Below are positions 1-63,073 of a stretch of DNA of 64,000 nt, one piece after another. Numbering within the stretch: the stretch's first letter is position 1; each line of letters begins with the position of its first letter. This stretch comes from Chiloscyllium plagiosum (lineage: Eukaryota), in the NCBI RefSeq assembly GCF_004010195.1, contig NC_057751.1, positions 17,131,090 through 17,195,089 on the forward strand. Reading direction: 5' to 3'. A program made the position numbers and the translations under genes. The notes beneath the pieces were generated by a model. It did not search any database. It saw only the letters and a program-made list of their open reading frames with translations, and was not told where the DNA came from.

Positions 1-316
1 TCTCCCATGGGGAACCTTGTCGAATGCCTTACTGAAGTCCATATAGATCACATCTACCGCTCTGCCCCCATCAACCCTCTTTGTTACTTCTTCAAAAAAC
101 TCAATCAAGTTTATGAGACATGATTTCCCACGCACAAAGCCATGTTGACTATCCCTAATCAGTCCATGCCTTTCCAAATACATGCGCATCCTATCCCTCA
201 GGATTCTTTCCAACAACATGCCCACATGGACATGGCTCACTGGTCTATAGTTACCACGCTTCTTAAACAGTGGCACCACGTTTGCCAACCTCCAGTCTTC
301 CGGCACCTCACATGTG
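1..316 (-). mobile_element. CR1 LINE reverse-transcriptase fragment
   Basis: Minus strand reads VPEDWRLANVVPLFKK ... QHGFVRGKSCLINLIEFFEEVTKRVDGGRAVDVIYMDFSKAFDKVPHGR, typical of CR1 ORF2. Confidence 0.9.
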
Positions 317-1010
317 TCTATTGTTCTGTCTGGTTCACCATCACTTTCACTTTTGATCGAATTGTGGCTATTTTTGGCCAGAGGCTGAAATGTCGATTTT
401 GCAGTGTGAAATCGGCGGCTGTGGTTCCTGTGATTGACTATAATCAGTTGCTTCAATAATATATACTGGAATTTTATACCTGAACATTGGCATCGGTGGT
501 GTATCTTGCTTGGTAACTTTGTTTTGTTCGGTAACTTTGGATGGTCAGTGATCTCCAGTCTTTCGTGCAATCGAGTTGATCAATAACATTCAAAATGCAT
601 GTTTTACATTTTTCCTGATTTTAAAGATTAATAGTTTGACGGTCAGTAACATTTCAGTGACAGATAAAGCCCACAGAAGGCTCCAGTCTCCCGGCAGCGC
701 CTAGTCTCTGACAGGTGAACAGATGGAGAGTCGAAGAGAACCCATGATGCTGCTATTTCTTCTCTCAGCCAATTTCATCATCTTATGGTCATTGTTCATA
801 TTTTATTCTCTGTGGTGGCCGTTTTACAGTTTGGGATGTACCGTCTCTGCATCTTCAGGATTGTGTGCACGAATTAGGCTTTATGCTGCAGCTCCTTAGT
901 TGCTGCATTAAAATTGCAATATATGCCACGACTCAAACAAAATTCAGACAACAGTTGAGAAATGTACTGACATATCAATTTGTGCAGATTTATCTAATAA
1001 TCAAACTATT
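317..1010 (+). pseudogene. GPR139/GPR142-like class A GPCR pseudogene (TM3-TM7), 5' part replaced by CR1
   Basis: Reads CSVWFTITFTFDRIVAI..LKCRFCSVKSAAVV, then after a frameshift FFLILKINSLTV..MESRREPMMLLFLLSANFIILW, then ELGFMLQLLSCCIKIAIYATTQTKFRQQL. Collinear with the ORF at 31036-31898. In-frame TAG at 702-704 and at least two frameshifts. Confidence 0.85.
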
Positions 1011-1181
1011 CATTAGTCTACCTTGTCAGGATTCTCTTACTTTTTCACATTTACAGGAGTTGATGGTTTGATGTTATGGTAGTAAACGGCTATTTGGAAT
1101 CTATTTATAAGGGAACAGTATAGGTTATCTGTCTCGTTAGTAACAACATTTGTTTAATCATTATTTGTAGTTGCCGTTGCC

Positions 1182-1226
1182 AGAACCACCTGACGAAGGA
1201 GCAACGCTCCGAAAGCTAGTGCTTCT
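1182..1226 (+). ncRNA. Minimal type I hammerhead ribozyme motif inside a PLE-derived short repeat (1182-1270, family B)
   Basis: Core CTGACGA 1190-1196, extra A, stem II GGAGC/GCTCC, GAAA 1211-1214, palindromic AGCT and cleavage triplet CUA. Stem I is AGAA-C-CAC / GTG-C-TTCT. Confidence 0.7.
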
Positions 1227-1270
1227 TAATAAACCTGTTGGATTATAACCTGGTGTCGTGTGATTGTTAA

Positions 1271-1590
1271 GATTAGATTAGATTAGATTACTTTACAGTG
1301 TGGAAACAAGCCCTTCGGCCCAAGTCCACACCGACCCGCCGAAGTGCAAGCCACCCATACCCCTACATTTACTCCTTACCTAACACTATGGGCAATTTAG
1401 CATGGCCAATTCACCTGACCCTGCACATCTTTTGGACTGTGGGAGGAAACCAGAGCACCCGGAGGAAACCCACGCAGACACGGGGAGAATGTGCAAACTC
1501 CACACAGTCAGTCGCCTGAGGCAGGAATTGAACCCGGGACCCTGGTGCTGTGAGGCAGCAGTGCTAACCACTGTGCCACTGTGCCACCCA
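1271..1590 (-). mobile_element. HE1-type tRNA-derived V-SINE
   Basis: Reverse complement has A box TGGCACAGTGG, B box GGTTCAATTCC, the V-SINE core and an (AATCT)n tail. Confidence 0.9.
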
Positions 1591-1625
1591 CTTAATGATT
1601 AAGTGTTTAATCATTAACCTTCAAA

Positions 1626-5178: not shown

Positions 5179-6869
5179 CTTCCCTGCACTTCACATAATG
5201 AAAGAACAGTTTTCTGAAACTTGTGCATTTAAATAAACTTGTTGGGCTATAAATTAGTTTCCTGTGACTTACAGCTTTTTCCATCTCACCATCATTCTCC
5301 CCATCTTGACCGCTATTGATTCTGTCCCATTATTCAACTCAATTTCCATAATCAGTCTGTCCCACCAGGACTCCTAACCCATTGGTGATATCGATGTGAT
5401 TAATCAGTTTATCCCTCTTCACTGATATATCAATCCATCTGTCAGTCACTCCATCTCATCTCCACACAAATACTCCCAGCCTATTGATCAGTCTTTCTGC
5501 CCACATTACAGTACCTTGGAAGAAGGTCCAACCACCACAAGTCCTTCCACTCCAATGCATCGTTACTGTCAAAACTTAGTGGTCCTTTAAATCGCACGTC
5601 CACCCTCATCAATGCTCTCATACTACTGGACAGATCAGAAGTCAATCAAAAATGTCACATCCCACACCACCATCTCTCCCACTTCGATGGCCAGGCGCCA
5701 CAACTATTAGCACTCTTGCTCATACACCACATTACTTATTTCGAACAGATCAGTCTCCACATCTATCATGATCCAGTCCAAATTACAAAACACATATATT
5801 CCACTTCAAATGTCCAGTCACTATCTTCATCATCACGTCAACGCCCACCTATGTCACTCATTGGCTTGTATTTGTGACCATCATAACTCTGTCATACAAC
5901 CTGCAAACCAATCCAATTTAGCGGTCACTGTTTCCATCGTTACCGTTAACCACATCGATCAGAACAATACGTTGGCCATTTCCACTCTGTTGGACAGTGT
6001 AATGCTAACAACGACTCTACATGACTCACCACAATGACTCCAATGCAAAACTAGCTTGTCAGGATGACCACCACCAGTCTCTTCACTAACACACCGTAAC
6101 TCCCACCTCATTCTTCCGTGCCCATGACCAACTTTACTCTCCAAACCGTCTGCATCAGCACTCACCATATTCACTATCAATCTCCAATCCACCTCACAAT
6201 TACTCACTCCATCCCAAATTTGCAGCTTTTGTATCCACATTTACTAGATTCCAGGTCTCACATCGCTCTTACCACACCCAGCCACATGTGCAGTCTCGCC
6301 CATTGGCCTGTGTCCACGTCCATTATTATTCTCTCCTCCCCTACACCACTAAAATTATTAAATTGGCCATTCCCCAAACCCAACATAACTCTGTCTAGCG
6401 TTCTGCAAGTGTCAATGAGGTCCCACTTTATCTCTCCACACTCAGTTGAGTTCTGTTCATTACTCTGCCCTCCCACTCCAATCTCATCGACACTGCCGTC
6501 ACATTGGACAGTCACCACGTCTGTCATCATTCGGAACATCCACATCCCATTGGCCAGATTCCCTGTCCATCATAGTTCTGCCCACCTGTGTCACGTCAGT
6601 CCTAGCTCACTCAACAATCTTCGTGTACATCATCACTCCCTCTCTCTCACACACTCCTCTCCAAAATTCCCATTGAACAGCCAATCTTCAAATCCACCAA
6701 TATTTTGCTCTTCCTCCACATTGTCACTCCCAACCCAATGGCCAGTCACTGCGCCTGTCATGACTCTGACAGTCCATCAGCACTGCAATCCCATTGATTT
6801 ATCTCCAGATGCAGCATCATTTTAATGTTCCACTCCATCATCACCCCCATCCCATTTACAACAGAGAAC

Positions 6870-9060: not shown

Positions 9061-9472
9061 TATTTTCCCCAAAACCTTTTTTGCCTGCCTCAATTGTTGA
9101 GGCATCTCCTGAAATAAGGTATGCAGTACGTTCACATTTTGTTTCCCATCAGTTTCAATAGGATCGATGGTAACTTTCAACTTTCTCTTTTCTGTGTTTG
9201 CAGTTAGTAATCAGATTGGTTCCCTCAGAACTTGCATCAGCATCTGATATCTGCTGTTTTATCGGCATCACTTTAACCTTGCGGTAATGTTCTCACTTTT
9301 TTTTACCTTTCTCTTTGTAATTCTGACTCTATTCCACTTTCTCGCTTCCATTTCTATTTTTCTTAATTTGATTTCCCGTTCCTTATCTATTTCTGCCATT
9401 TTAAAATCTTCTCTTTTCATTCTGTCTTTCAGCTTCAACGATCATCATGGATATTGGCATACTACATGGAGT

Positions 9473-9653
9473 TGCTGGAAAAGCGCAGCAGGTCAGGCAG
9501 CATCCAAGGAGCAGGAGAATCGACGTTTTGGGCATGAGCCCGAAGAAGGGCTCATGCCCGAAACGTCGATTCTCCTGCTCCTTGGATGCTGCCTGACCTG
9601 CTGCGCTTTTCCAGCAACACATTTTCAGCTATGATCTCCAGCATCACTTTCTC
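9473..9653 (+). mobile_element. Palindromic hammerhead-bearing short element (family A) with TSD
   Basis: Near-perfect inverted repeat 9471-9618. Flanking direct repeat CATACTACATGGAGT at 9458-9472 and 9654-9668. Confidence 0.85.
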
Positions 9654-20599: not shown

Positions 20600-23495
20600 A
20601 CAACGTGTATGACTGCAACGTAATCTACACGCCCCTCAATTTCCTGCCATTCTTGCGCTTGTCCACCCGTCACCTAAATGTCCTCAAGTCTCTGACTCCA
20701 CTAACACTGGTGGCAGTACATTCCACGCACCCATCATTCTCTGCACAAAGAATCTACCTTTGACATCTCCCAAGTACCTTCCTCCAATCACCTTAAAATT
20801 GCGATACTTCGTGACAGACATTTCAGTCCTGAGGAAACACTCTGGCTATCTACTCTATTTATGCCTCTCATTAGTTTGTACGATTCTATTCAAGTCACCT
20901 CTCTTCCTTCTTCTCTCCAATGTGAAAACCCCAAGCTCACTCAAACTCTCTTCATTAGACAAGTAATCCAATTCAGGCGGCATATCGGTATATCTCCTCT
21001 GCACCCTTTCTAACACATCTACGTCCTTCCAATAATAAGATAACCACAAGTGGACACAATATTCCAAGTGCTGTCTCACCGCTTTGTTATGGAGCTTCAG
21101 CAACACATCGATGCTCTCAAACTCAATCCCCAGTTAAGAAAAGCCAAAACACCGTACACCTTATTTAAAAAAAATCAACGGAGGTAACATCTTGAAAGGA
21201 TCTATGTACGTGCATCCCAACTTCCCGCTCTCCCTCTATATCGCCGAAAATTCTATCTTTAAACGTGTATTCAGCATTAAAATTCGACTTTGCAAAAGGA
21301 ATCATTTCGCATTTATCCAGGTTGAAGACCATATGCTACTTCTCAGACAGGCTCTGTATCCTGTCAATATTTTGTTATAGCATTTTAAAAAAAACAGCCC
21401 TTGACACTAGATACAACATGACCGACCTTTTTTGTCATCGGCATACTTACCATCCCACCCTTCCCCTTATTATCCAAGTCATTTATAAAATGTTACAAAG
21501 ATGAGGTGCCCAAGAACACATCCCTGCGGGAAACCACTAGTCCATCCACTACCACTCACTTTCTCCTTTCGACCAGATGGCTAAGTGTCCCTGTATCCCA
21601 TAACTCCTAACTTTCTGAATGAGGCTATCGTGGGGAACCTTATCAAATGCATTACTGAAATCGATATACACCACACCCACTGCTAGACCTTCGCAACCTG
21701 ACTCTTCACATCATCAAAGAACTCAATAGAGATTGAGAGTCATGCCTCCCCCCCACCCCGACTATTTTAAATCAAACTCTGCTTGTCCAAATAGACATTA
21801 ACCCTGGACTGTGGCTTGGTGTTGTCTGATTTGTAACTTTGTTTACCCAAGTCCAACACTCCCCTCTCATCATCATGCAAGAGCAGGGTGTTTCTCTTGG
21901 TGCTGTGTGTGTCCTGGGAGTGTCTGGTGCAAGCAGTGTCAGGGCTTCTTGGTCTTTTATGCTTACATCTCTGGTTTCAAAAGAGAGGAGGGTTGTTTTT
22001 CAAATGGGAGGCCGGTGGCGAACATATGTATTAGTACGGTGTCCATTGCCATTTGTCATGTATAGAATAAGAATTTCTATGGGAAAATAGGACCAATGGT
22101 TGCGTGTATGAGATGAGCTGCCAGGGGAAGTGTTGTGGGTTGGTAAAATTATAACATTTAAAAGATACCTGAATGGGTATATGAATAGGAAGAGTTTGGA
22201 GTGATATGGTCAAAGTGCTCAGAAATGGGAAGAGATAAATTTAGAATATCTGATTGGCATAAGCATGCTGGACCGAAGGTTCTGTTTCCATGCTGCACAT
22301 CTCGGTGACTGTATTACTCAGAATCCTTTCCAGTATCTTGCTCACCACAGACTAACTTCTCTGCAATTTCCAGGGATTTCCCTATTCCCTTTCTTGAACA
22401 GAGCAACAACATTCGCCTGTCTCAAATGATTCAGTAGTACTCCAGTGGAGAGTGGGGATGCAAAGATCATCGCCAGAGGCGCAGCAATCTCATTACTCTC
22501 TTCATAGAGTTACCTTGGAAACATCTCGTCGGACCCTGGGAACACATCTACCCTAAAGCTACCCAGAGCTTTCAGCACATCCACTTTCTTAATATCAAAC
22601 TGTTGAAGCCAGTTCCACAGTTTTCTCACGATCAACAATGTCCATCTCTCTCTAGTGAAACCAGAAGCAAAGAAAAAACTAATTTAGCGCCGGTCCTACC
22701 TCGTCAGACTCCAGACACAAGTTTTCTCCAAAACCTAATATTGCCCCTCCCCTCTCTATGTACATTAATGGTTTTCCTTATGTTATGCCTTTGAGTTTTC
22801 TCCAATCCTTCCCGCCAAGGTTTTTTCATTTCCCCTCCTAGATCAATTCAGTCCATTTTTGAGTTATTTCCTAAGTGCTCTGTAATCCTCTAAAGCCTTG
22901 ATTTCTCAAGCATAAGTAAGCTTCTTTCTTCCTCTTGACAAGAAACCCCCCCTTGTCTTATCACCCACTGCTCCTGGCGTTACCATTCCTTGCCTATCTC
23001 AGCAGGATAATACCATCCAACTTCCGAAACAAGTCCTCCTTAAACAGCCTCCACATATCTGTTGTGCGTTGCCCATGGAACAATTGTTCCGAATTCTTCT
23101 TCACAGCTCCCATCTAATAGCTGTATAATTGCTTCTCCCCAATTAAATATATTGCCATACAATATTTTGCGTCCCCTCACCATGGCTATTGTGAAGGTAA
23201 GACAGTTGTGATCACTGCCACCAAAATGTTCTTCCACAAAGAGATCTGACACCTGGCCTGGCTCGTTGCCTTGCAACAAATCCATTTCGCCCTCCCACCA
23301 CAGCTCCTGACCCCCACACCCCCTGCTTTCGGCCAATCTACATATTGTGTCAGTAGTCATTCTTGGACAAAATCGGCTCCACTAAGATTATCTGCACTAA
23401 GGAGTTCCCAATCAATATTGGGGAAGGTGAAGTCACCGAAAACAACAACTCTATTGGTTTTGCCCCTTTCCAAGATCTGCTTTCCATGCTGTTCT
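20600..23495 (-). mobile_element. Degenerate CR1 LINE (RT and endonuclease), with small nested insertions near 21805-22320
   Basis: Minus reads LEYCVHLWLSYYWKDVDVLERVQRRY and EPGQVSDLFVEEHFGGSDHNCLTF. Confidence 0.8.
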
Positions 23496-26269: not shown

Positions 26270-26662
26270 CATGATTTGGAGATGCCGGTGTTGAACTGAA
26301 TCTGTTCCCATCACCTTCTCAGAACAACTGCCACACCAGCACACGAGTGAATATAATAGCCCCACTATGTTGTTGGTTATACACCAATACCTGGATCTAA
26401 CTGCAGGCAATTTCCTTTAGCATGACGACCCTTCAGACATCAGAAATAGTGGACTGAGTTGGCGAGTTTGGTGATGAATGAAAGTTAAAAATCACACAAC
26501 ACCAGGTTATAGTCCAACAGGTTTAATTGGAAGCGCTAGCTTTGGGAGCGACGCTCTTTCATCAGGTGACAATCGCCTGATGAAGGATTGATGCTCCGAA
26601 AGCTAGTGTGCTTCCAATTAAACCTGTTGGACTATAACCTGGTGTTGTGTGATTTTTAACTT
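26270..26662 (-). mobile_element. Palindromic family B hammerhead element with internal captured sequence and TSD
   Basis: Palindrome 26481-26663 with CTGATGA..CTCC-GAAA-GCTA. Family B tail at 26270-26296. TGTTTGTAAA repeated at 26260-26269 and 26663-26672. Confidence 0.75.
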
Positions 26663-27250
26663 TGTTTGTAAAGGTATAATCATGCGTGCGTTGGATGAAC
26701 AGGTACATCACAGCATTCAAATCAGAACCAGACAGTCATTCAGAGAGATTACAAATCATCACGATAGTCCAAGGGGGTGGGGGCTACTCTCTCGAAACAT
26801 TTATGAGACATTTACACTTAAACATTTTTTTCCTGAAGCACAGGCAATTCACTTATTTATATCGTTGAGTCATTCGGTGGAACCCAAAGAGTCGAAGATA
26901 TTGGCAATACGTGAACAACCATATAACAGAGTACTACCATTCTCACAGATATTGGTGTAAATCTGAAGCATAGGGACTGAGAGCTTGGCGAACGTAACTT
27001 CAATAGGGTAAAATGAGCCAGAAACACAAAGAAAAGTGACTGAGTTAGTGGTGGAGAGATGAGGAATTGTGCGACTTACTCGTCAGGTCTGTCACGAATC
27101 TTAAGAAGACCTTGCAAATGGCCAAAATCTGCTTTGCTCACTTTGATTGTGTGAAACACTCAATTGGCTGTTTACAACTAATGATAGCGGGACACGCCTG
27201 TCCTCAATCAAACAGGCCTGTGTTTGTCCTCTGAAATTCATTCATTTGCA

Positions 27251-30921: not shown

Positions 30922-31035
30922 ACTAATTATTTTAACATGTCTGTGTTGATGAAAACGAACTCTTACCACTTAGCCTTAGTAATGGAGAATGTTCGTCTGC
31001 ATTGATCATTTTTACCCCTTCTCCCTCTCTTACAG

Positions 31036-31898
31036 TCAATTTACTGACGGTTGGGATCCTATTTCGGGGTAACTGTGGTCTCTCGTCCTGCAGCAGGTGC
31101 TACCTGCTGGCCATGGCTATGGTGGATCTATTGTTCGTTATTGCTGAGATCATACTCGAAAGAATCAAACATGATTTTTTCCCACCATCATTCTTGGAAA
31201 TTACCCCTGTATGTAGCGTTCACTATGCTCTATGCCGTCTACTCACAGACTTGTCTGTCTGGTTCACTATTGTTTTCACCTTTGATCGATATATCACCAT
31301 TTGTTGCGAGAAACTGAAAACCAAATTCTGCACTCAAAAAACTGCAACTGTCGTTCTCGCAACAACCAGCAGTCTGTTTTTTCTAAAAAATATCCCTATC
31401 TACTTCAGATTTGAACCTTATGAGATTATTAACAATGTACCATGGTACTGTATGAATTCAGATGCATACTATTATGACCCTGTGTGGAGAGGATTTAACA
31501 ACTTTGAGAAGATTCTAACACCAGTATTCCCTTTCTTTTTAATTCTGTTCCTCAACGCTCTGACAGTCAAACACATTTTAGTGACCAGTCGAGTCCGGAA
31601 AGGTCTGAAGGGTCAGAGTAACCGAGAAGATTCCAGCGACTCAGAGATGGAGAGTAGAAGACGGAGTATAATTTTACTCTTCGTCATATCTGGCTACTTC
31701 ATTTTTCTGTGGCTGTGGTATATTTTATATTATTTCGATGTTGATGATCTTTTAGGTAGAGATGGTAAGTACATATTTAAGCAATTTGCATACATGCTGC
31801 GGAATTTGAATTGCTGCACGAACACCATCGTCTATGTGGCATCTCTGTCCAAGTTCAGAGAGAAGTTCAGGAACCCACTGGACGTTATTTTTGCATAA
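31036..31898 (+). CDS. Exon 2 of an intact GPR139/GPR142-like orphan class A GPCR (spliced product 309 aa)
   Basis: Polypyrimidine tract plus TACAG acceptor ending 31035, and an open frame with hydrophobic TM segments. Motifs: YLLAMAMVDLL, FTFDRY, RRRSIILLFVISG, and NCCTNTIVY (NPxxY variant). Confidence 0.88.
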
Positions 31899-44618: not shown

Positions 44619-44759
44619 CAAAATTAAAAAGCACCCTAAGTGAAGAAATGCAACATCCCCTCAACCCATATTTTCCGTTAGGAATGATGCGGAGTTGGAA
44701 TGGGGTGGAGAATGTCAGCAGTCACTCAACCTCAGGTTACAATCCAGCATTTTTAGTTG

Positions 44760-44910
44760 AAATCACAACCTTTCGGAGCCTTGCCCCATCCTCAGGTGAA
44801 TCCTCCTTCATTTGACGAAGGAGCCATCCTCAGGTGAATCCTCCTTCATTTGACGAAGGAGCAGCGTTCCGAAAACTTGTTGGACTGTCAGCTGGTGCCA
44901 TGTCATATCG
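44760..44910. mobile_element. Palindromic family-B-related hammerhead element with a 38-bp internal tandem duplication
   Basis: Minus CTGAGGA-T-GGGGC-AAG-GCTCC-GAAA; plus TTGACGA-A-GGAGC-AGC-GTTCC-GAAA. 44786-44823 equals 44824-44861. Confidence 0.65.
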
Positions 44911-47200: not shown

Positions 47201-48507
47201 CAGAAAGTGTAAGAAACTGAAGGAGAAATGTATTAATTTCTTTTATGCCTTGTTTGAGCTTGATTACAACTGTAATGCCATGACGGATCAGTCACCCAAC
47301 CAGTTTTCAGAAGTTAAGGCTAGATGAACTGAAAGATTAATATAATGCATTCCTGTGGTAGGAAACTGCTGAACAGATCTGCGTGGCAGTTATAGCCTGC
47401 AGCTCCCTCTTGAAATGGGCAGTTGTTAGAATGCACACATTAGTAGAGTCGCCATTGTGGCTTCTACCAAAACATAGGGCTTCTACCCCTCCAACTACGG
47501 TGGCTGAAGTTTTAAGAATTATTCCTAAGGGTTCACATGTCTTCGGAATTACATTCCGTGTCATTGGGACATTAATGCTGTACCTTCCCTTTATTATATG
47601 AACTAGCAAATATAATTAAAGAACTACTAATCCCAGTTTTGTCTTTTGTTAATACTTGGAAGTTCGTTGACTGCAACTCCCACCTCAGAGATGGAGAAGG
47701 ACAAATGCAGAGGGAATGCCCAAGTGAGCAATCCATGCCATTTTCTGATGACAGACATTAATACTTTCAATTGTTCTCATTATGAAATAGACTGTGCCTT
47801 AATTTAGATCCATTGCACACTTGCTCTCTGTTTTTCCCGCACTGTCAGTGTTAACCCATGAACATCGTCTTAAAATGATCCTCCATGGACTGATTCCAAT
47901 TCGTTTAAGATAAACTCTTTCAATGCAATGGATCTGCATTTGTAACTGAGAAGTTCATCCGCAATGAGATGTGCTAAAACAAATCTCCAGCGCTTTTCTT
48001 TCAGATTTAGTGAACTCTGTGGTGATTGTCATCTTGAACAGCAGAGAACAGTTGTGTCCTCTGAGAACGGAGAACATACGATTCGATGAGAATGGTTGAG
48101 TTTTGGATCATGTTGGTCACTTCCTGTTGAAACATTCCAAACTTTTAGCAAGGATTGAAAAGATTTGTATCTCAGGTTGAGGTTCTGGATGTGAGTTTGC
48201 TCGCTGAGCCGGAATGTTCGGTTTCAGATATCATCAGTGGATCTCCAGTGAACAGCTGGTGTTGTATCCCGCTTTCTATTTATTTGTTTAGATTTCTTTG
48301 AGTGTTTGGTGATGTCATTTCCAATTCTTTTGCTGAAAGGATCCTAGATGAGATCAAAATCAATGCGCATGTTCAAAGAGTTCTGTTGGGAATGCTTCAG
48401 GGGTTTGTTTGGCTTGTCATATGATGTATGTATTGCCCCTGTCAAAGCAGTGGACTTCCTCGTCTGCATGTAAGCACACTCGTGATAGTGGGTCATGTCC
48501 TTTCATG

Positions 48508-48743
48508 AGTTGAAAAATGTGGTGCTGGAAAAACACAGCAGGCCAGGCAGCATCCGAGGAGCAGGAGAATCGACGTTTCGGGCATAAGCCCTTCTTATGG
48601 AGAAAAGCCCTCATTCCTGAAGAAGGGCTTATGCCCGAAACCTCGATTCTCCTGCTCCTCGGATGCTGCCTGGCAGGCTGTGATTTTCCAGCACCACATT
48701 TTTCAACTCTGGTACTCCAGCATCTGCAGTCCTCACTTTCTCC
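48508..48743 (+). mobile_element. Palindromic family A element with TSD, inserted in the Penelope GIY-YIG region
   Basis: CATGTCCTTTC(A/G)TG at 48494-48507 and 48744-48757. Confidence 0.85.
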
Positions 48744-49194
48744 CATGTCCTTTCGTGGCCAGTTGATGCTCATGTATCCTGGTAGCTAGTTCTCGGCCTG
48801 GTTGTTCAATTTCGTGTTTGATACAGTCCTTGTAAGCTATTCTTGTAAATAGCCTCGTTTTGTCTGTCTCAGGTCTTCTAAGTTTGTCAGCTGTTGTTAA
48901 GTATCTTGGTTCTTATTGTGCGCACCATGATGCCAAGAGGTCTGAGTAGTCTGTCAGTCATTTCAGAGATATGTTTGATATAGTGTGAAGTAGCTAGAGT
49001 TTCTGGGCACCTTTTGTTTGCATGTTTGGAATTCATATTGATAAATCAGCGGAGTGTATTTATTGGGTGCCCTTTCATCTTGGTACAAGGTTTTCTTCTG
49101 CTCTTCACAGCTCTGTAGTGCTGCAGCGAACGGTGGCTTGTTGAAATAATATCCTAATGCTATTTCGTTTTGGGAGTGGGGATGATTGTTTCTG

Positions 49195-49409
49195 TAGTTG
49201 AATATTTTTTTCCGTATGTGTTATTTTCATGGAGACGCTGGTTTGACATTCCCGCTGACATTCCCGCTGACATAGTTGAATATTTTTTTCCGTATGTGTT
49301 ATTTTCATGGAGACACTGGTTTGACATTCCCGCTGACATTCCCGCTGATATAGTTGAATATTTTTTTCCGTATGTGTTATTTTCATGGAGACACTGGTTT
49401 GACATTCCC
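49195..49409. repeat. 78-bp tandem repeat (about 2.75 copies) inside the Penelope ORF
   Basis: Units start at 49195, 49273 and 49351 and are near-identical. Confidence 0.95.
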
Positions 49410-49584
49410 TATTGTGACATCTAGGAATGACAGTTTGTTCTTGCTTTCTTCCTCTTTTTTTGAATGTTATGCCTGTAAGACTATTATTGATTTCCTCTAA
49501 CCTGTTTCATTTAGTGATGACAAAGGTGACATCCACGTACCGGAACCAACTTTTGGGTTGGATGGTACCAAGAGCTGTTTGTTC

Positions 49585-51020
49585 GACTCACCATCTCTCT
49601 CCCATCTCGGCCAGTGTCCATCCAGGCCCATTGTGTAGTCTCCATTTCCATCATCATTCTGTCCCACCAGGGCATTCAACCAATTGGTAGCATCCATATG
49701 ATTGATGACACTGTCCCACTGCACAAATATGTCAACGCATTTGTCAGTCTCCATGTCAATCATCACTCCGTCTTACTTCCACACCATTACTCGCATCTGA
49801 TTGACCAGTCTTTCTTCCCACCATTGTACTGCCTTGGAAGAAGCTCCCCCTCCCATCAATCCTTCCACTCCATTGGATTGTTACTCGAATCACTTACTGG
49901 CCATCTCATTGTCCTTTAAATCGCACTCCCACCGTTATAAATGCTCTCATACTGCTGGTCAGTACCGTAGTCAACCAAAAATGTGACCTCGCACACCGCG
50001 ATCGCTTCCAGTCTGATGACCATATCTATCAGCACACTTGCTCATAGCCCACATGAGTGCTTTCCAACAGATGAGTGTTCACATGCACCATTGGGAGAAA
50101 GTGAGGTCTGCAGACGCTGGAGATCAGAGTTCAGAGTGTGTTGCTGGAAAAGCGCAGCAGGTTAGGCAGCATCCGAGGAGCAAGAGAATCGACATTTTGG
50201 GCCATAGCCCTTCATCAGGAACGAAACATAGATTCTCCTGCTCCTCGGATGCTGCCTGACCTGCTGTGCTTTTCCAGCAACACCCTCTCGACTCCACATC
50301 CACCTTTATCACATCCACATTCTAAAACACATATATTCCCCATCAAGTGGACAGTCACCATTGTCATAATCACGTCAACACCCCACTCAAATCCCCACTG
50401 GTTTGTATTTGCAACCATCATCACTCTGTCAAATAATCTGGCCACCAAACCAATCGTATTTAGCAGTCACTATTTCCACCGTCACTGTTCAACCACAACA
50501 ATCCATTGGCCGCTCCCACTTCTTTGGACAGTCTCAATAGTTACAATGACGCTCTGTCAGACGCCATCATGAGCCCAATACAATTAGCCCATCACCATGA
50601 CCACTACCAGTCTCTTTGCCAACACCCCCGTGATTCCCATCCGGTTGTTCAGTTCCCATGATCAACTTCATTCGCTATATCGGCAGTCTCAATATTCACC
50701 ACCAACCTCCAATCCATCACACAATTATTCACATCACATCAGTCAAACACGAACATCTCTCACCCCGTCCTAAACATGCAGCATTTGCATTCACATTTTT
50801 TGACTTCCAGGTCTAACATCACTCTTACCACACCCAGCCACCTATGCAGTCCCGCCAAACGGCCTGCGTCCACCTCCGTCATAATTTTGTGTCCCCCCAC
50901 GACAATACAATCAATCAATTGGCCATTCCCCACAACGAAAATAACTCGGTCTAACATTCTGTACGTGTCAATGAGGTTCCACTTTACACCTTCAAACTCG
51001 GTTGAATTCTGGTCCAACCT
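49585..51020. repeat. Diverged paralogue of 5285-6460
   Basis: Shared blocks such as CCTTGGAAGAAG, GTCCTTTAAATCGCAC and CTCTTACCACACCCAGCCAC occur in the same order. Confidence 0.8.
50093..50294 (-). mobile_element. Palindromic family A element with imperfect TSD
   Basis: CACATGCACCATT at 50080-50092 versus CACATCCACCTTT at 50295-50307. The element is absent from the paralogous site near 5755. Confidence 0.8.
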
Positions 51021-56295: not shown

Positions 56296-56668
56296 CTTAT
56301 ATGAGGTGTAAAAAATAATGAAAGGAATAGATAGAGTCAATAGCCAGAGACTTTTCCCCAGGGCAGGATTGACTGGTACGAGAAGACATAATTTGAAGAT
56401 GTTAGGAGGAAGGTATAAAGGAGACATCAAAGATAGTTTCTTTACGCAAAGGGTTGTGAATGCATGGAATGCATTGCCAACTGAGGTGGTGGAAGCGAAG
56501 TCATTGGGGACATTTAAACGACTGCTGGACATGCACATGGATAACAGTGAGCTGAGGGATGCGTAGGTTAAGTTGCTATATTTTATATTAGGATTAAGTC
56601 TCGGCACAACATTGTGGGCTTAAGGGCCTGTTCTGTGCTGTACTTTTCTATGTTCTCTGTATTCTATG
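56296..56668 (+). mobile_element. CR1 LINE 3' end
   Basis: Reads MKGIDRVNSQRLFPR..FFTQRVVNAWNALP..FKRLLDMHMD, with a TTCTATG tail. Confidence 0.9.
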
Positions 56669-59257
56669 ATTGTCATGACTGCACCGACGTCAGCTAGGTG
56701 GACCTCGTTGAATCTGATTGGGGCTGTTAATCCAATAGAGTCAAGGAGCCGTGACTGACAGATGTAAACAGGAATATTAAAGGTTTGGTTCACTCTGAGA
56801 GCTGATTGTGAGGAAGCCAGACTGGTGTGAAGTACTATGATCGCGTGAATAAATGGTGCCGTGATGACGGGATATTGGATCTGCTGGCGTGACGTCAGTG
56901 GGATTAATGGAATCCCACAATAAAACATGCACATACTAGCTGAAGTCCTTCTGAACCTGAAACCGGCAATACAGCGAGCTTTGACATCACAGACTGCGAT
57001 AAGTCGAGAACATAAGCTATAGAATATGCCGATGGAAGTTGGTACTCTCTCCAGGTCAACTGAGTTTTGGATACAACGCTTGAGTGAATGCAATTGCACA
57101 CACTTACTCATGATTTCTCATAAACAGATCGGCTCGAGGTCAGCCCTCAGCAAACTCCACCTCCCCCCAATAAAAAGAATCCATGGCACGGGCAAATGCT
57201 CAACAGTGTCTTCAGCATGTGTGCTGAAGTTGCTGGCATGCATACTCAAGAAGACAAAAGAGTCTGACTAGCCCAGAATTAAATTAGATAAGATTGCTAG
57301 GACTGTGCACACATAGAAGGTGCACCTATATTTGGATGGAAACAGTTTAAATGCTCCACAACATCCAAATCTGTACCTATCAAAGTAAACGTCTAGTTAA
57401 ACGGTCAACCAGTTCTATAGGAGGTTGATCCGGGCATGGCTGTATCAGTGATTGCAGAACTAGTTTTTTAAAAAAATGCTACGGTCTGTGACTCTTCAGA
57501 TTCCACGCAACCTCTGTTAGACAGATAACTTACACTTGGGAAGCTTTGGCAGAATAAAGGTACCATTTTAGTTCCAGAGTGGTATGGAAAGCACCTGGGT
57601 CAGTGAACGCCAATTGTCAGAAAAAGGCCTTTTACAAGCCCTATGGGGCAAAACTAGTTCAGAAAGACTCAACTTGAATTCTCAACATTTTTCAGTTAGA
57701 AAATGGTTGCCTGACTGACGGCAGAATTAATTACCTAAACCATTTTTTTTAGGAAGGTTCAGGGACTGTCAAAGGACACGACAACCATCTTGCACTTGAA
57801 CCAGGATACAAGTCTGCAGGCCCGTCCAGCGCCATTAAATGTAAAAGTACAGGCATGGGTCAGAAAGCTGGAAAGTCACGGAATCAGGAAAACAGTATAG
57901 TTTGCAGAATGGGCAGCACTGGTTACAATAATTGTGAAGACCAATGGATCGGTTTCAATTTGTGGGGACTTTATAAAAGCGGTAAACCACTTCTCCCGGT
58001 GGATAAATGCTAAATCACTTGCACAGAGGACTTGCATGGAAAAGTGGCAGGTTGGGGCGGGTTGGGGGGAAGGGATTCATGAAGCTGCAAATGAGCCATG
58101 TATACCTACAATTAAACTTTTCTGAGAATTCTCACAAACTTGCTTCATTTAATGCCATGGGTTTGTAACACTGGACAAAACAGCCATTTGGGGTTTCAAC
58201 AGTCCGTGCCATTATTCAGTGGACGATGCAAAACGTTTGTCAGCTCTCATATCGGGTACCATTTGTCTCGATGAAGTTGTAACAACAGGAAAGACCAATA
58301 AAAGAAAAAATCACTTACACACCGTGGAATTCATTCTTAGATCTTCATCCACATGCAGGTCGAGGCCGTATAAGACAAACATGTATATTCCAGGTACCTC
58401 AAGTGCCCTATTTGGGTTACAGATTCGATACTGAAGGACTACAGCTGGTGGAGGATAAAGTGAAGATGATAAAAAGTGTACCAGCTCCCATGTCCTGACT
58501 GGAGCTGAGGTCTTTCCATGGATTGGTGAATTATGAGGGAAAATTCACACGTAACCTGACCTCCATATTGGGACCATTCAATCTGCTGCTGCAAATTGGA
58601 ACTTAATCAAGATATACCCTTTGTGGAAGTAAAGAAGAAGCTGTCATCTCAGGTGTTTGTACACTATGATATCCAGTGAGATTTGGTGCTGACATATGAT
58701 GGATTCCCATATGGTATTGGGGTAATGTTGGCTCACAGATGGCCCAATGGAACGCTAAGTATTTCATGCCTCCCTGCTCTTGGCTGATGCTGAAAACTAA
58801 CATGCCCAGGTAGACACTGAAGCTTTGGTGGCCAGCTTTGTTGTAAGTTCTAACAAAGCCTTTTTGCGTGTAAGTTTGTAATAATAACAGAGCACAAACT
58901 CCTGCCAGCGCTTCTCAAAGAAGACAAGAACGTACCACCCATAGCTTCAGGTCGAATTCAGAAATTGCGTATCATTCTAATCGTGTACAATTACAAATTG
59001 GAACGCCAATCAGGAGGCCAAGTAGCAAATGTGGATTGCGTGAGCCACCGTCTCATGGCAGATACACCATAGTTCGTGCTGCCACTGAAAGTCTTCATAC
59101 TTGTTTTAAACTTGCTGGACACCCTTCCTGTCACCGTTGACAATTTTTGACTGTAGATGCCAAAAGATCAGTTCTTGGCCGATCAAAAGCAATTGAAATG
59201 ATTGAGTGTGTGTGTATGTGTGTGTGTGTGGGGGGGGGGGGGGTGGTGTGGGCGGCT

Positions 59258-61066: not shown

Positions 61067-61274
61067 GAGCTGAAAATGTGTTGCTGGAAAAGTGCCGCAG
61101 GTCAGGCAGCATCCAAGGAGCAGGAGAATCAACGTTTCGGGCATGAGCCTGAAGAAGGGCTCATGCCGGAAACGTCGATACTCCTGCTCCTTGGATGCTG
61201 CCTGTCCTGCGGCGCTTTTCCAGCAACACATTTTCAGCTCTGATCTCCAGCATCTGCAGTCCTCACTTTCTCCT
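61067..61274 (+). mobile_element. Palindromic family A element with TSD inside CR1
   Basis: AAACGTTC(C/T)GGTCA at 61053-61066 and 61275-61288. Confidence 0.88.
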
Positions 61275-62324: not shown

Positions 62325-62856
62325 AACGTGTCGAATATGGCTGCCTGTGGATGGGATAAACGTTCTTAGGTATTGTGCATGACGACTCAGAGTGGTTAAA
62401 TGTGCGTGGATTTCATTCCTCAAACACGCAGACAGTGATAGAAGAGTTGGTAGCATCTTTTGCCATATGCTGACGCCCAAAAATGTTGGTCACAGACAAT
62501 GGGCCATCTTTAACTAGCACGGATATTCAATATTTACTAAAGTCCGAATGTTTTTTGCCAAATAGGAGCTGCTACGCAACACTGATATTCCAGTGGGCTG
62601 GTGGAAACAGCAATACAAACTTTGGAGCTCGGCTTTAAAAAAAAAAGCCTGCAGCTTCACTCATCACCAAATTTGTCCATTTCCTATTTGAGAACCAGAC
62701 CAGTCTGCATGCATATACAGGCATAGCTCTCACAGAATTGCTACTGGGGAGAAGATTCCGCAGCAGTTCAAATCTGATCATCCCAGACCTGGGACAGCTG
62801 GTACCATAAATCACAGGTGTCGCCCTGGATGGGTAAGCTGCATGGTCCACATGATG

Positions 62857-63073
62857 CTGAAAATGTGTTGCTGGAAAAGCGCAGCAGGTCAGGCAGCATC
62901 CAGGGAACAGGAGAATCGACGTTTTGGGCATAAGCCCTTCTTCAGGAATCAAAGAAGGGCTTATGCCCGAAACGTCGATTCTCCTGTTCCCTGGATGCTG
63001 CCTGACCTGCTGCGCTTTTCCAGCAACACATTTTCAGCTCTGATCTCCAGCATCTGCAGACCTCACTTTCTCC
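62857..63073 (+). mobile_element. Palindromic family A element with perfect 14-bp TSD
   Basis: TGGTCCACATGATG at 62843-62856 and 63074-63087. Confidence 0.9.

Follow-up and report, generated by a model that had tools for sequence, protein, structure and literature searches.

It is highly probable that the motif at positions 1182-1226 of the 64,000-nucleotide stretch of Chiloscyllium plagiosum DNA analysed here (the window) is a minimal type I hammerhead of the pseudo-LTR (pLTR) of a Penelope-like element (PLE), now present as a solo, 5'-truncated stub that is practically inert at its locus, and that the parent transcripts are cut as dimers.

Anatomy of the motif and tests against chance

Inspection of the + strand revealed every part of a type I hammerhead in order, with the core at 1190-1218 (Table 1). 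The preliminary description had listed these parts in their correct order and had placed both the palindrome and the CUA cleavage site 3' of A1218 correctly, but it had left out A1197, which lies between the core box and stem II. Stem II opens with the pair G10.1-C11.1 (G1198-C1210), the GAAA box is followed by G1215, C1216, U1217 and A1218, and stem I of this copy is 7 bp long.

Table 1. Features of the stub and its immediate surroundings, in window coordinates
Feature	Position	Strand	Basis
Frameshifted rhodopsin-family GPCR pseudogene	247-984	+	tblastn, E 2.5e-16 and 7.5e-8 against ORF 30936-31895
Left copy of 13-bp flanking duplication	1151-1163	+	repeat comparison
16 nt within the duplication that most of family A does not share	1164-1179	+
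5'-truncated stub (~90 bp) from family A, a high-copy repeat; putative PLE pLTR end	1180-1270	+
Stem I, 5' strand, AGAA-C-CAC (1187-1189 and 1184-1185 pair throughout the family; 1182-1183 pair in this copy or a minority only)	1182-1189	+	sequence
Core box C3-U4-G5-A6-N7-G8-A9 (CUGACGA)	1190-1196	+	sequence, strict descriptor
Extra A between positions 9 and 10.1	1197	+	sequence
Stem II, 5 bp, GGAGC (1198-1202) / GCUCC (1206-1210), loop AAC	1198-1210	+
G12-A13-A14-A15.1 (GAAA)	1211-1214	+	sequence, strict descriptor
Palindrome AGCU in place of stem III, able to pair only between two copies	1214-1217	+
Predicted cleavage site 3' of A1218 (CUA triplet)	1218-1219	+	inferred from hammerhead numbering
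Stem I, 3' strand, GUG-C-UUCU	1219-1226	+	sequence
AAUAAA hexamer, 10 nt beyond the predicted cut	1228-1233	+	sequence
Poly(A) position on RNAs from family copies, not tied to the 1182-1226 copy	1243-1248	+	run X21
GU-rich stretch following the poly(A) position	1251-1268	+	sequence
SINE-like repeat, (GATTA)n end abutting the stub	1268-1591	-	11 further window matches
Right copy of 13-bp flanking duplication	1604-1616	+	repeat comparison

A strict descriptor of the motif found two sites in the window and none in any of 20 dinucleotide shuffles, while a looser pattern gave four matches against a shuffle mean of 0.12. The descriptor search of the window returned 13 rows, 11 of which belonged to two repeat families, designated A and B. 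The other two (52427 on the + strand and 3807 on the - strand), which have a long irregular stem and no inserted base, were dropped as probable chance matches.

An Rfam search, proposed in the preliminary description, did not return a hammerhead. The whole window gave no match at the gathering score, and a scan of 900-1500 at E<=10 gave two matches, neither to a hammerhead family. The motif is therefore not a canonical type I hammerhead; along with the missing Rfam match, its monomer has no helix III, where canonical members have a stable one. The lack of an Rfam hammerhead, together with a minimum-energy fold that is not the hammerhead and a z-score of only -1.48, might suggest that the fold is a chance match. 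That reading is next to impossible, and is already refuted by the absence of strict matches from all 20 shuffles and by the retention of the same core in two sequence-distinct families whose stems differ compensatorily.

The repeat family and its surroundings

Contigs from three runs (three organisms) were aligned to 1000-1270 at a likeness of at least 80%. All three runs gave large numbers of aligned contigs (16,328, 10,457 and 12,156), nearly all on 1180-1270, although the cut-off favours intact copies and contig depth is not a copy count. These thousands of contigs, together with paralogs found in the window by self-BLAST, bear out the earlier assignment of the motif to a short interspersed repeat. 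In run X1 the depth climbed from about 20 to more than 58,000 at 1180-1189, with loose ends at 1180, 1184 and 1187, and in the contig runs homology started at 1180-1187 next to mixed flanks. A subset of 141, 122 and 106 contigs continued into a shared upstream sequence, which was followed for 30 letters. At the other end, many contigs ran beyond 1263-1265 into a shared 3' tail, which is also present in the window copies at 44795 (-) and 21805 and missing from those at 26577 (+) and 26565 (-).

The family-A paralogs detected by self-BLAST lie at 26577 (+), 26565 (-), 44795 (-) and 44850 (+), and the window holds at least 11 hammerhead copies of families A and B. Members of the two families form head-to-head pairs at 26481-26663, 44711-44906, 9471-9630, 61067-61240 and 62856-63040, giving palindromes of 160-200 bp. 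No tandem array of family A was found in the window by self-BLAST. Pattern scans of viral, prokaryote and (twice) metagenome collections gave no loci, and ARAGORN found no tRNA in 1000-2000. Two further, degraded family-A stubs that lack a complete hammerhead lie at 5213-5267 (+) and 21805-21860 (+), the latter retaining the 3' tail.

The GPCR pseudogene on the same strand, reported in the preliminary description, was confirmed by tblastn against a 7tm_1 ORF of the window. The statement that the motif lies just 3' of it also holds as to strand and position (about 200 nt downstream), but the link is one of adjacency only. A functional connection between the GPCR pseudogene and the hammerhead received no support, since 985-1180 has no paralog in the window and the descriptor found no hammerhead near the intact GPCR ORF at 30936-31898. 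This open frame (+ strand, 320 aa, rhodopsin family, 7tm_1 E 5.6e-14) forms a small GPCR cluster with the decayed paralogs at 247-984 (+) and 46832-46237 (-). The start of the pseudogene is overlapped by a LINE-type RT fragment at 7-264 (-), with an RVT_1 E of 1.3e-6, just under the curated cut-off.

The stub is abutted by a SINE-like repeat (1268-1591), presumably an HE1/V-SINE, and both lie between the copies of a 13-bp duplication. Among 5000 random window pairs 2 reached this length, and among 5000 shuffles none did. The duplication probably marks the target site of a single insertion into which the SINE is nested. The 11 bases that follow the SINE repeat the neighbouring target-duplication word in inverted orientation, which produces a small AT-rich palindrome (1592-1617). 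Elsewhere in the window, at about 56300-58900 (+), decayed protease, RT, RNase H and integrase-like motifs recognised by eye suggest the remnant of an LTR retrotransposon.

Stem covariation and decay among copies

Fourteen copies in the window (five of family A and nine of family B) were tabulated, fewer than all BLAST matches. Between families A and B, compensatory differences affect three pairs, one in each stem (A-U/G-C in stem II, G-C/C-G in stem III and A-U/U-A in stem I). No compensatory change was seen within family A in the contig runs. The stem covariation across genomic copies, whose absence the preliminary description had named as part of a refutation, is present between the families and was not seen inside family A. 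In the contig runs, loop II of family A varies in 20-68% of depth, and its non-CpG stem II and core positions show at most 2% variants or fall below the 5% level for listing. The contrast between the variable loop and the steady stem and core fits selection on source elements.

Core, stem II and stem III are all intact in only 2 of the 14 tabulated copies, those at 1190 (+) and 39557 (+). In the three contig runs, C accounts for 92, 81 and 94% of the depth at position 1183 and for 94, 95 and 94% at position 1226; the outer two pairs of stem I are therefore missing from most family-A copies, and the long stem I described earlier cannot be taken as a family trait. G12 (1211), which lies within a CpG, is A in 11.2, 12.6 and 13.7% of depth. 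The neighbouring CpG position G1206, which is part of stem II and so not a fully neutral control, is mutated in 11.0, 11.9 and 12.9%. Since G12 is mutated about as often as G1206, there is no sign that this catalytic base is protected in genomic copies. The perfect core and two extra stem I pairs of the 1182-1226 copy would be expected as well of a subfamily that is young or under selection.

Relationship to Penelope-like elements

Minimal hammerheads are carried by the PLEs of fish, among others (Cervera & De la Pena 2014, PMC4209133). As described in that report, they have a single base that separates position 9 from 10.1, a G10.1-C11.1 pair, a palindromic stretch (15.1-16.1 / 15.2-16.2) replacing helix III and a short irregular helix I, and they occur in thousands of mostly solo copies, some of them in close opposite-strand pairs (PMC4209133). 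The motif at 1182-1226 shows CUGANGA, GAAA and UH in type I order, together with the extra nucleotide A1197 and the G10.1-C11.1 pair. Its palindrome AGCU has a G-C pair where family B has C-G, and it belongs to a large family with covarying stems, as seen in the three compensatory differences among the 14 copies. The published anatomy therefore bears out the earlier identification of a minimal hammerhead of type I and PLE kind whose stem III is a palindrome. As for the repeat itself, PLEs are marked by truncation, inverted neighbours and an optional tail of 30-40 bp (PMC8557442, PMC11167929, in the parts used here), and family A shows 5' truncation, inverted adjacent copies and an optional tail. 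Compared with the published hammerheads, the copy at 1182-1226 combines the palindrome AGCU with CUA (family B in the window has ACGU/GUC) and has a stem II of 5 bp; the sections of that report consulted mention neither sharks nor a poly(A) site in use beyond the cleavage position (PMC4209133).

We searched the whole window by tblastn with eight of nine PLE proteins, P0005 being left out for its repetitive match. The sole match region was 48396-49587. It corresponds to a decayed element with RT and GIY-YIG (Penelope-type) at 49587-48396 (-), away from every family-A copy, and it indicates that PLEs exist in this genome. No remnant of an RT plus GIY-YIG ORF was found by this search adjoining the family-A copies in the window. 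Pfam GIY-YIG was detected in four of eight scanned relatives, once above the cut-off. Four protein relatives of a remnant in the window carry carpet-shark names, in keeping with a shark genome. Word-index protein searches with the PLE remnant gave no match, and a six-frame Pfam scan of 48700-49601 and 1000-1271 gave nothing relevant. Inserted in the endonuclease region of this element is a head-to-head pair of family-B hammerheads (about 48740-48510), flanked by two copies of an 11-bp word; at 48237 (-) there is also a core that resembles a hammerhead but has no stem II. We infer from its anatomy that family A is a PLE end repeat, or pLTR.

A close comparison is the Poseidon element PAc of Anolis carolinensis, which like family A has a hammerhead in its pLTR, two classes of 3' end and no RNA-seq ends at the cut (PMC11167929). 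In assays of PAc, cleavage needs the element's protein and is dispensable for insertion in vitro (Frangieh et al. 2024, PMC11167929, as far as that account was available). The ORF of PAc starts inside the hammerhead (PMC11167929), whereas the frame through the 1182-1226 copy closes at once. Vertebrate non-LTR retrozymes, one of them chondrichthyan, resemble family A in being pLTR-derived and in having a type I hammerhead and dispersed monomers (bioRxiv 10.64898/2026.07.22.740005).

Family A might instead be an independent, non-autonomous SINE-like or retrozyme family and not the truncated ends of autonomous PLEs. Its copies are mostly about 90 bp long with starts close to 1187, none was seen to have an ORF, and the retrozymes reported from vertebrates include the chondrichthyan example (Li, Clavereau, Pollet, bioRxiv 10.64898/2026.07.22.740005). 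We consider this very unlikely. Retrozymes are defined in that preprint by tandem units, whereas the copy at 1182-1226 is solo and the window contains no same-family tandem of hammerhead units. A subset of contigs extends into shared upstream sequence, and both the pairing of inverted copies and the optional tail are marks of PLEs (PMC8557442, PMC11167929). Moreover, retrozymes are themselves described as derived from pLTRs (bioRxiv 10.64898/2026.07.22.740005), so that the difference is one of degree.

Competence of the copy at 1182-1226

The preliminary description had suggested that this copy may still be catalytically competent. The copy is solo. On the same strand, the nearest hammerhead found, at 9540, is one of the other family whose stems I and III differ, and the first family-A member with a hammerhead core lies 25 kb away, at 26577. 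We modelled folding with nearest-neighbour energies, which contain no tertiary terms. Within 1180-1230 the hammerhead fold (-11.0 kcal/mol) lies 1.5 kcal/mol above the minimum (-12.5 kcal/mol), a helix between 1196-1203 and 1220-1227. The predicted pair probability of stem I is about 0.35 in this segment and 0.01-0.06 in three longer contexts, and the competing helix reaches 0.15-0.6 with flanks. A modelled dimer, at -22.1 kcal/mol, falls short of the stability of two separately folded monomers, at -25.0 kcal/mol or lower. Efficient dimer cleavage of such variants was reportedly obtained by Lunse et al., as told in a review passage. Other published assays are discouraging. PLE minimal hammerheads are described as inactive as monomers and of low activity as dimers (PMC4209133), PAc of Anolis was not cleaved unless the PLE protein was present and left no RNA-seq ends at the cleavage site (PMC11167929), and one of nine Xenopus dimers was cleaved (bioRxiv 10.64898/2026.07.22.740005), as far as these sources were consulted.

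One could nevertheless imagine that the copy works as a ribozyme where it stands, for instance within the 3' UTR of the GPCR (pseudo)gene, and cleaves either alone or in a dimer formed with another transcript. Its core, stem II and palindrome are intact and stem I has 7 bp, it lies about 200 nt beyond the GPCR frame on the same strand and just before AAUAAA, and the hammerhead is close to the minimum in the 1180-1230 model. In addition, any two sense transcripts of so abundant a family could meet in trans. This is very unlikely, since the host GPCR gene is frameshifted, the unique flank 1000-1169 had no RNA reads in about 2% of one run, the models predict little stem I and a competing helix when flanks are included, as well as an unfavourable dimer, and the assays cited above indicate inactive monomers, weak or rarely cleaved dimers and a need for protein. 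The solo state, the predicted competing helix, the atypical outer stem I pairs and the published assays thus argue against a catalytic competence that is likely at work here. The copy at 1182-1226 probably does nothing at its locus.

RNA reads and the poly(A) site

The RNA data came from a single-cell poly(A) run (X21), some 2% of which was sampled, with 2030 reads aligned. None of the 2030 reached a likeness of 99%, and none fell on the unique flank 1000-1169. The reads therefore come from other copies, and expression of the 1182-1226 copy is unsupported.

Pairs whose first mate mapped to the minus strand were counted as sense, assuming that the first mate reads antisense. Among the loose ends listed for this run, runs of A began behind 1242 (538 reads) and 1248 (422 reads). 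Sense depth at 1250-1259 was 0.10 of that at 1230-1239; the corresponding ratios were 0.71 for the other strand and 0.17-0.33 for the contig runs. Position 1248 is followed by the GU-rich stretch at 1251-1268, which would serve as a downstream element. Upstream of the A-runs, ATTAAA or ACTAAA takes the place of AAUAAA in three of the four other family-A copies of the window, so that A(A/T)TAAA or ACTAAA stands 10-12 nt past the cut in four of five. Some family copies thus supply a poly(A) site about 25-30 nt beyond the predicted hammerhead cut. A few loci may dominate the poly(A) reads, three upstream loose ends accounting for 314, 335 and 178 reads, and some of the reads may stem from priming on A-runs present in the genomic sequence of these loci.

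Sense depth across the cut site was 0.86, compared with 0.98 on the other strand, and no pile-up of read ends at the cut was present among the loose ends listed, in a poly(A)-primed library that may not reveal such ends. Together these values indicate that most tailed family RNAs are uncut. A 3' product of about 28 nt would probably be lost in this library, so some cleavage is compatible with the reads.

Our search of the literature, of incomplete coverage so that novelty is unproven, found no description of a poly(A) signal behind PLE hammerheads. In the hammerhead of rodent Clec2 3' UTRs, as in family A, the cleavage site lies upstream of the polyadenylation signal, and cutting would remove the tail (PMC6765202). 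The Clec2 ribozyme is described as split and active, with a shown effect on expression (PMC6765202), whereas family A has a minimal core of putative activity, in an arrangement that belongs to a mobile repeat. By analogy, family A might be a mass-dispersed 3'-end cassette whose cut site stands 10 nt before a functioning poly(A) signal. Insertions in sense orientation would provide shark transcripts with poly(A) sites, and conditional cleavage would strip the tails again, in effect a genome-wide, Clec2-like switch tied to retroelement activity. The trigger would be dimerisation with another RNA of the family, or the element's protein binding to it. The reads show the poly(A) site in use by at least some copies; regulated cleavage is hypothetical and most sense reads are uncut, and we hold such a switch to be highly improbable.

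Discussion

We favour the reading of the motif as the hammerhead of a PLE pLTR that has been left as a stub. The parent PLE transcript would carry the repeat twice, so that two hammerheads could swap stem I strands and the AGCU palindromes of the two copies could pair, rebuilding stem III. The element's protein probably assists, and the cut would fall after CUA, as the literature suggests. The hexamer behind the hammerhead would end the element's transcripts. For the 1182-1226 copy, reverse transcription would have begun at the 3' end and gone no further than the ribozyme, yielding a stub of about 90 bp. Stubs such as 1180-1270 would decay neutrally, and this copy, having no partner in cis, would be intact by youth or chance and not by selection.

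This class of hammerhead has been known since 2014, and the motif at 1182-1226 adds one more copy, in a shark repeat. It is usable as a test substrate, being an AGCU/CUA variant with a 7-bp stem I and among the best-preserved copies in the window. If cleavage removes the tails of RNAs ending in family A, it would give PLE hammerheads a role in the turnover of element or host RNA, and the placing of the hammerhead before the poly(A) site could address what PLE hammerheads do.
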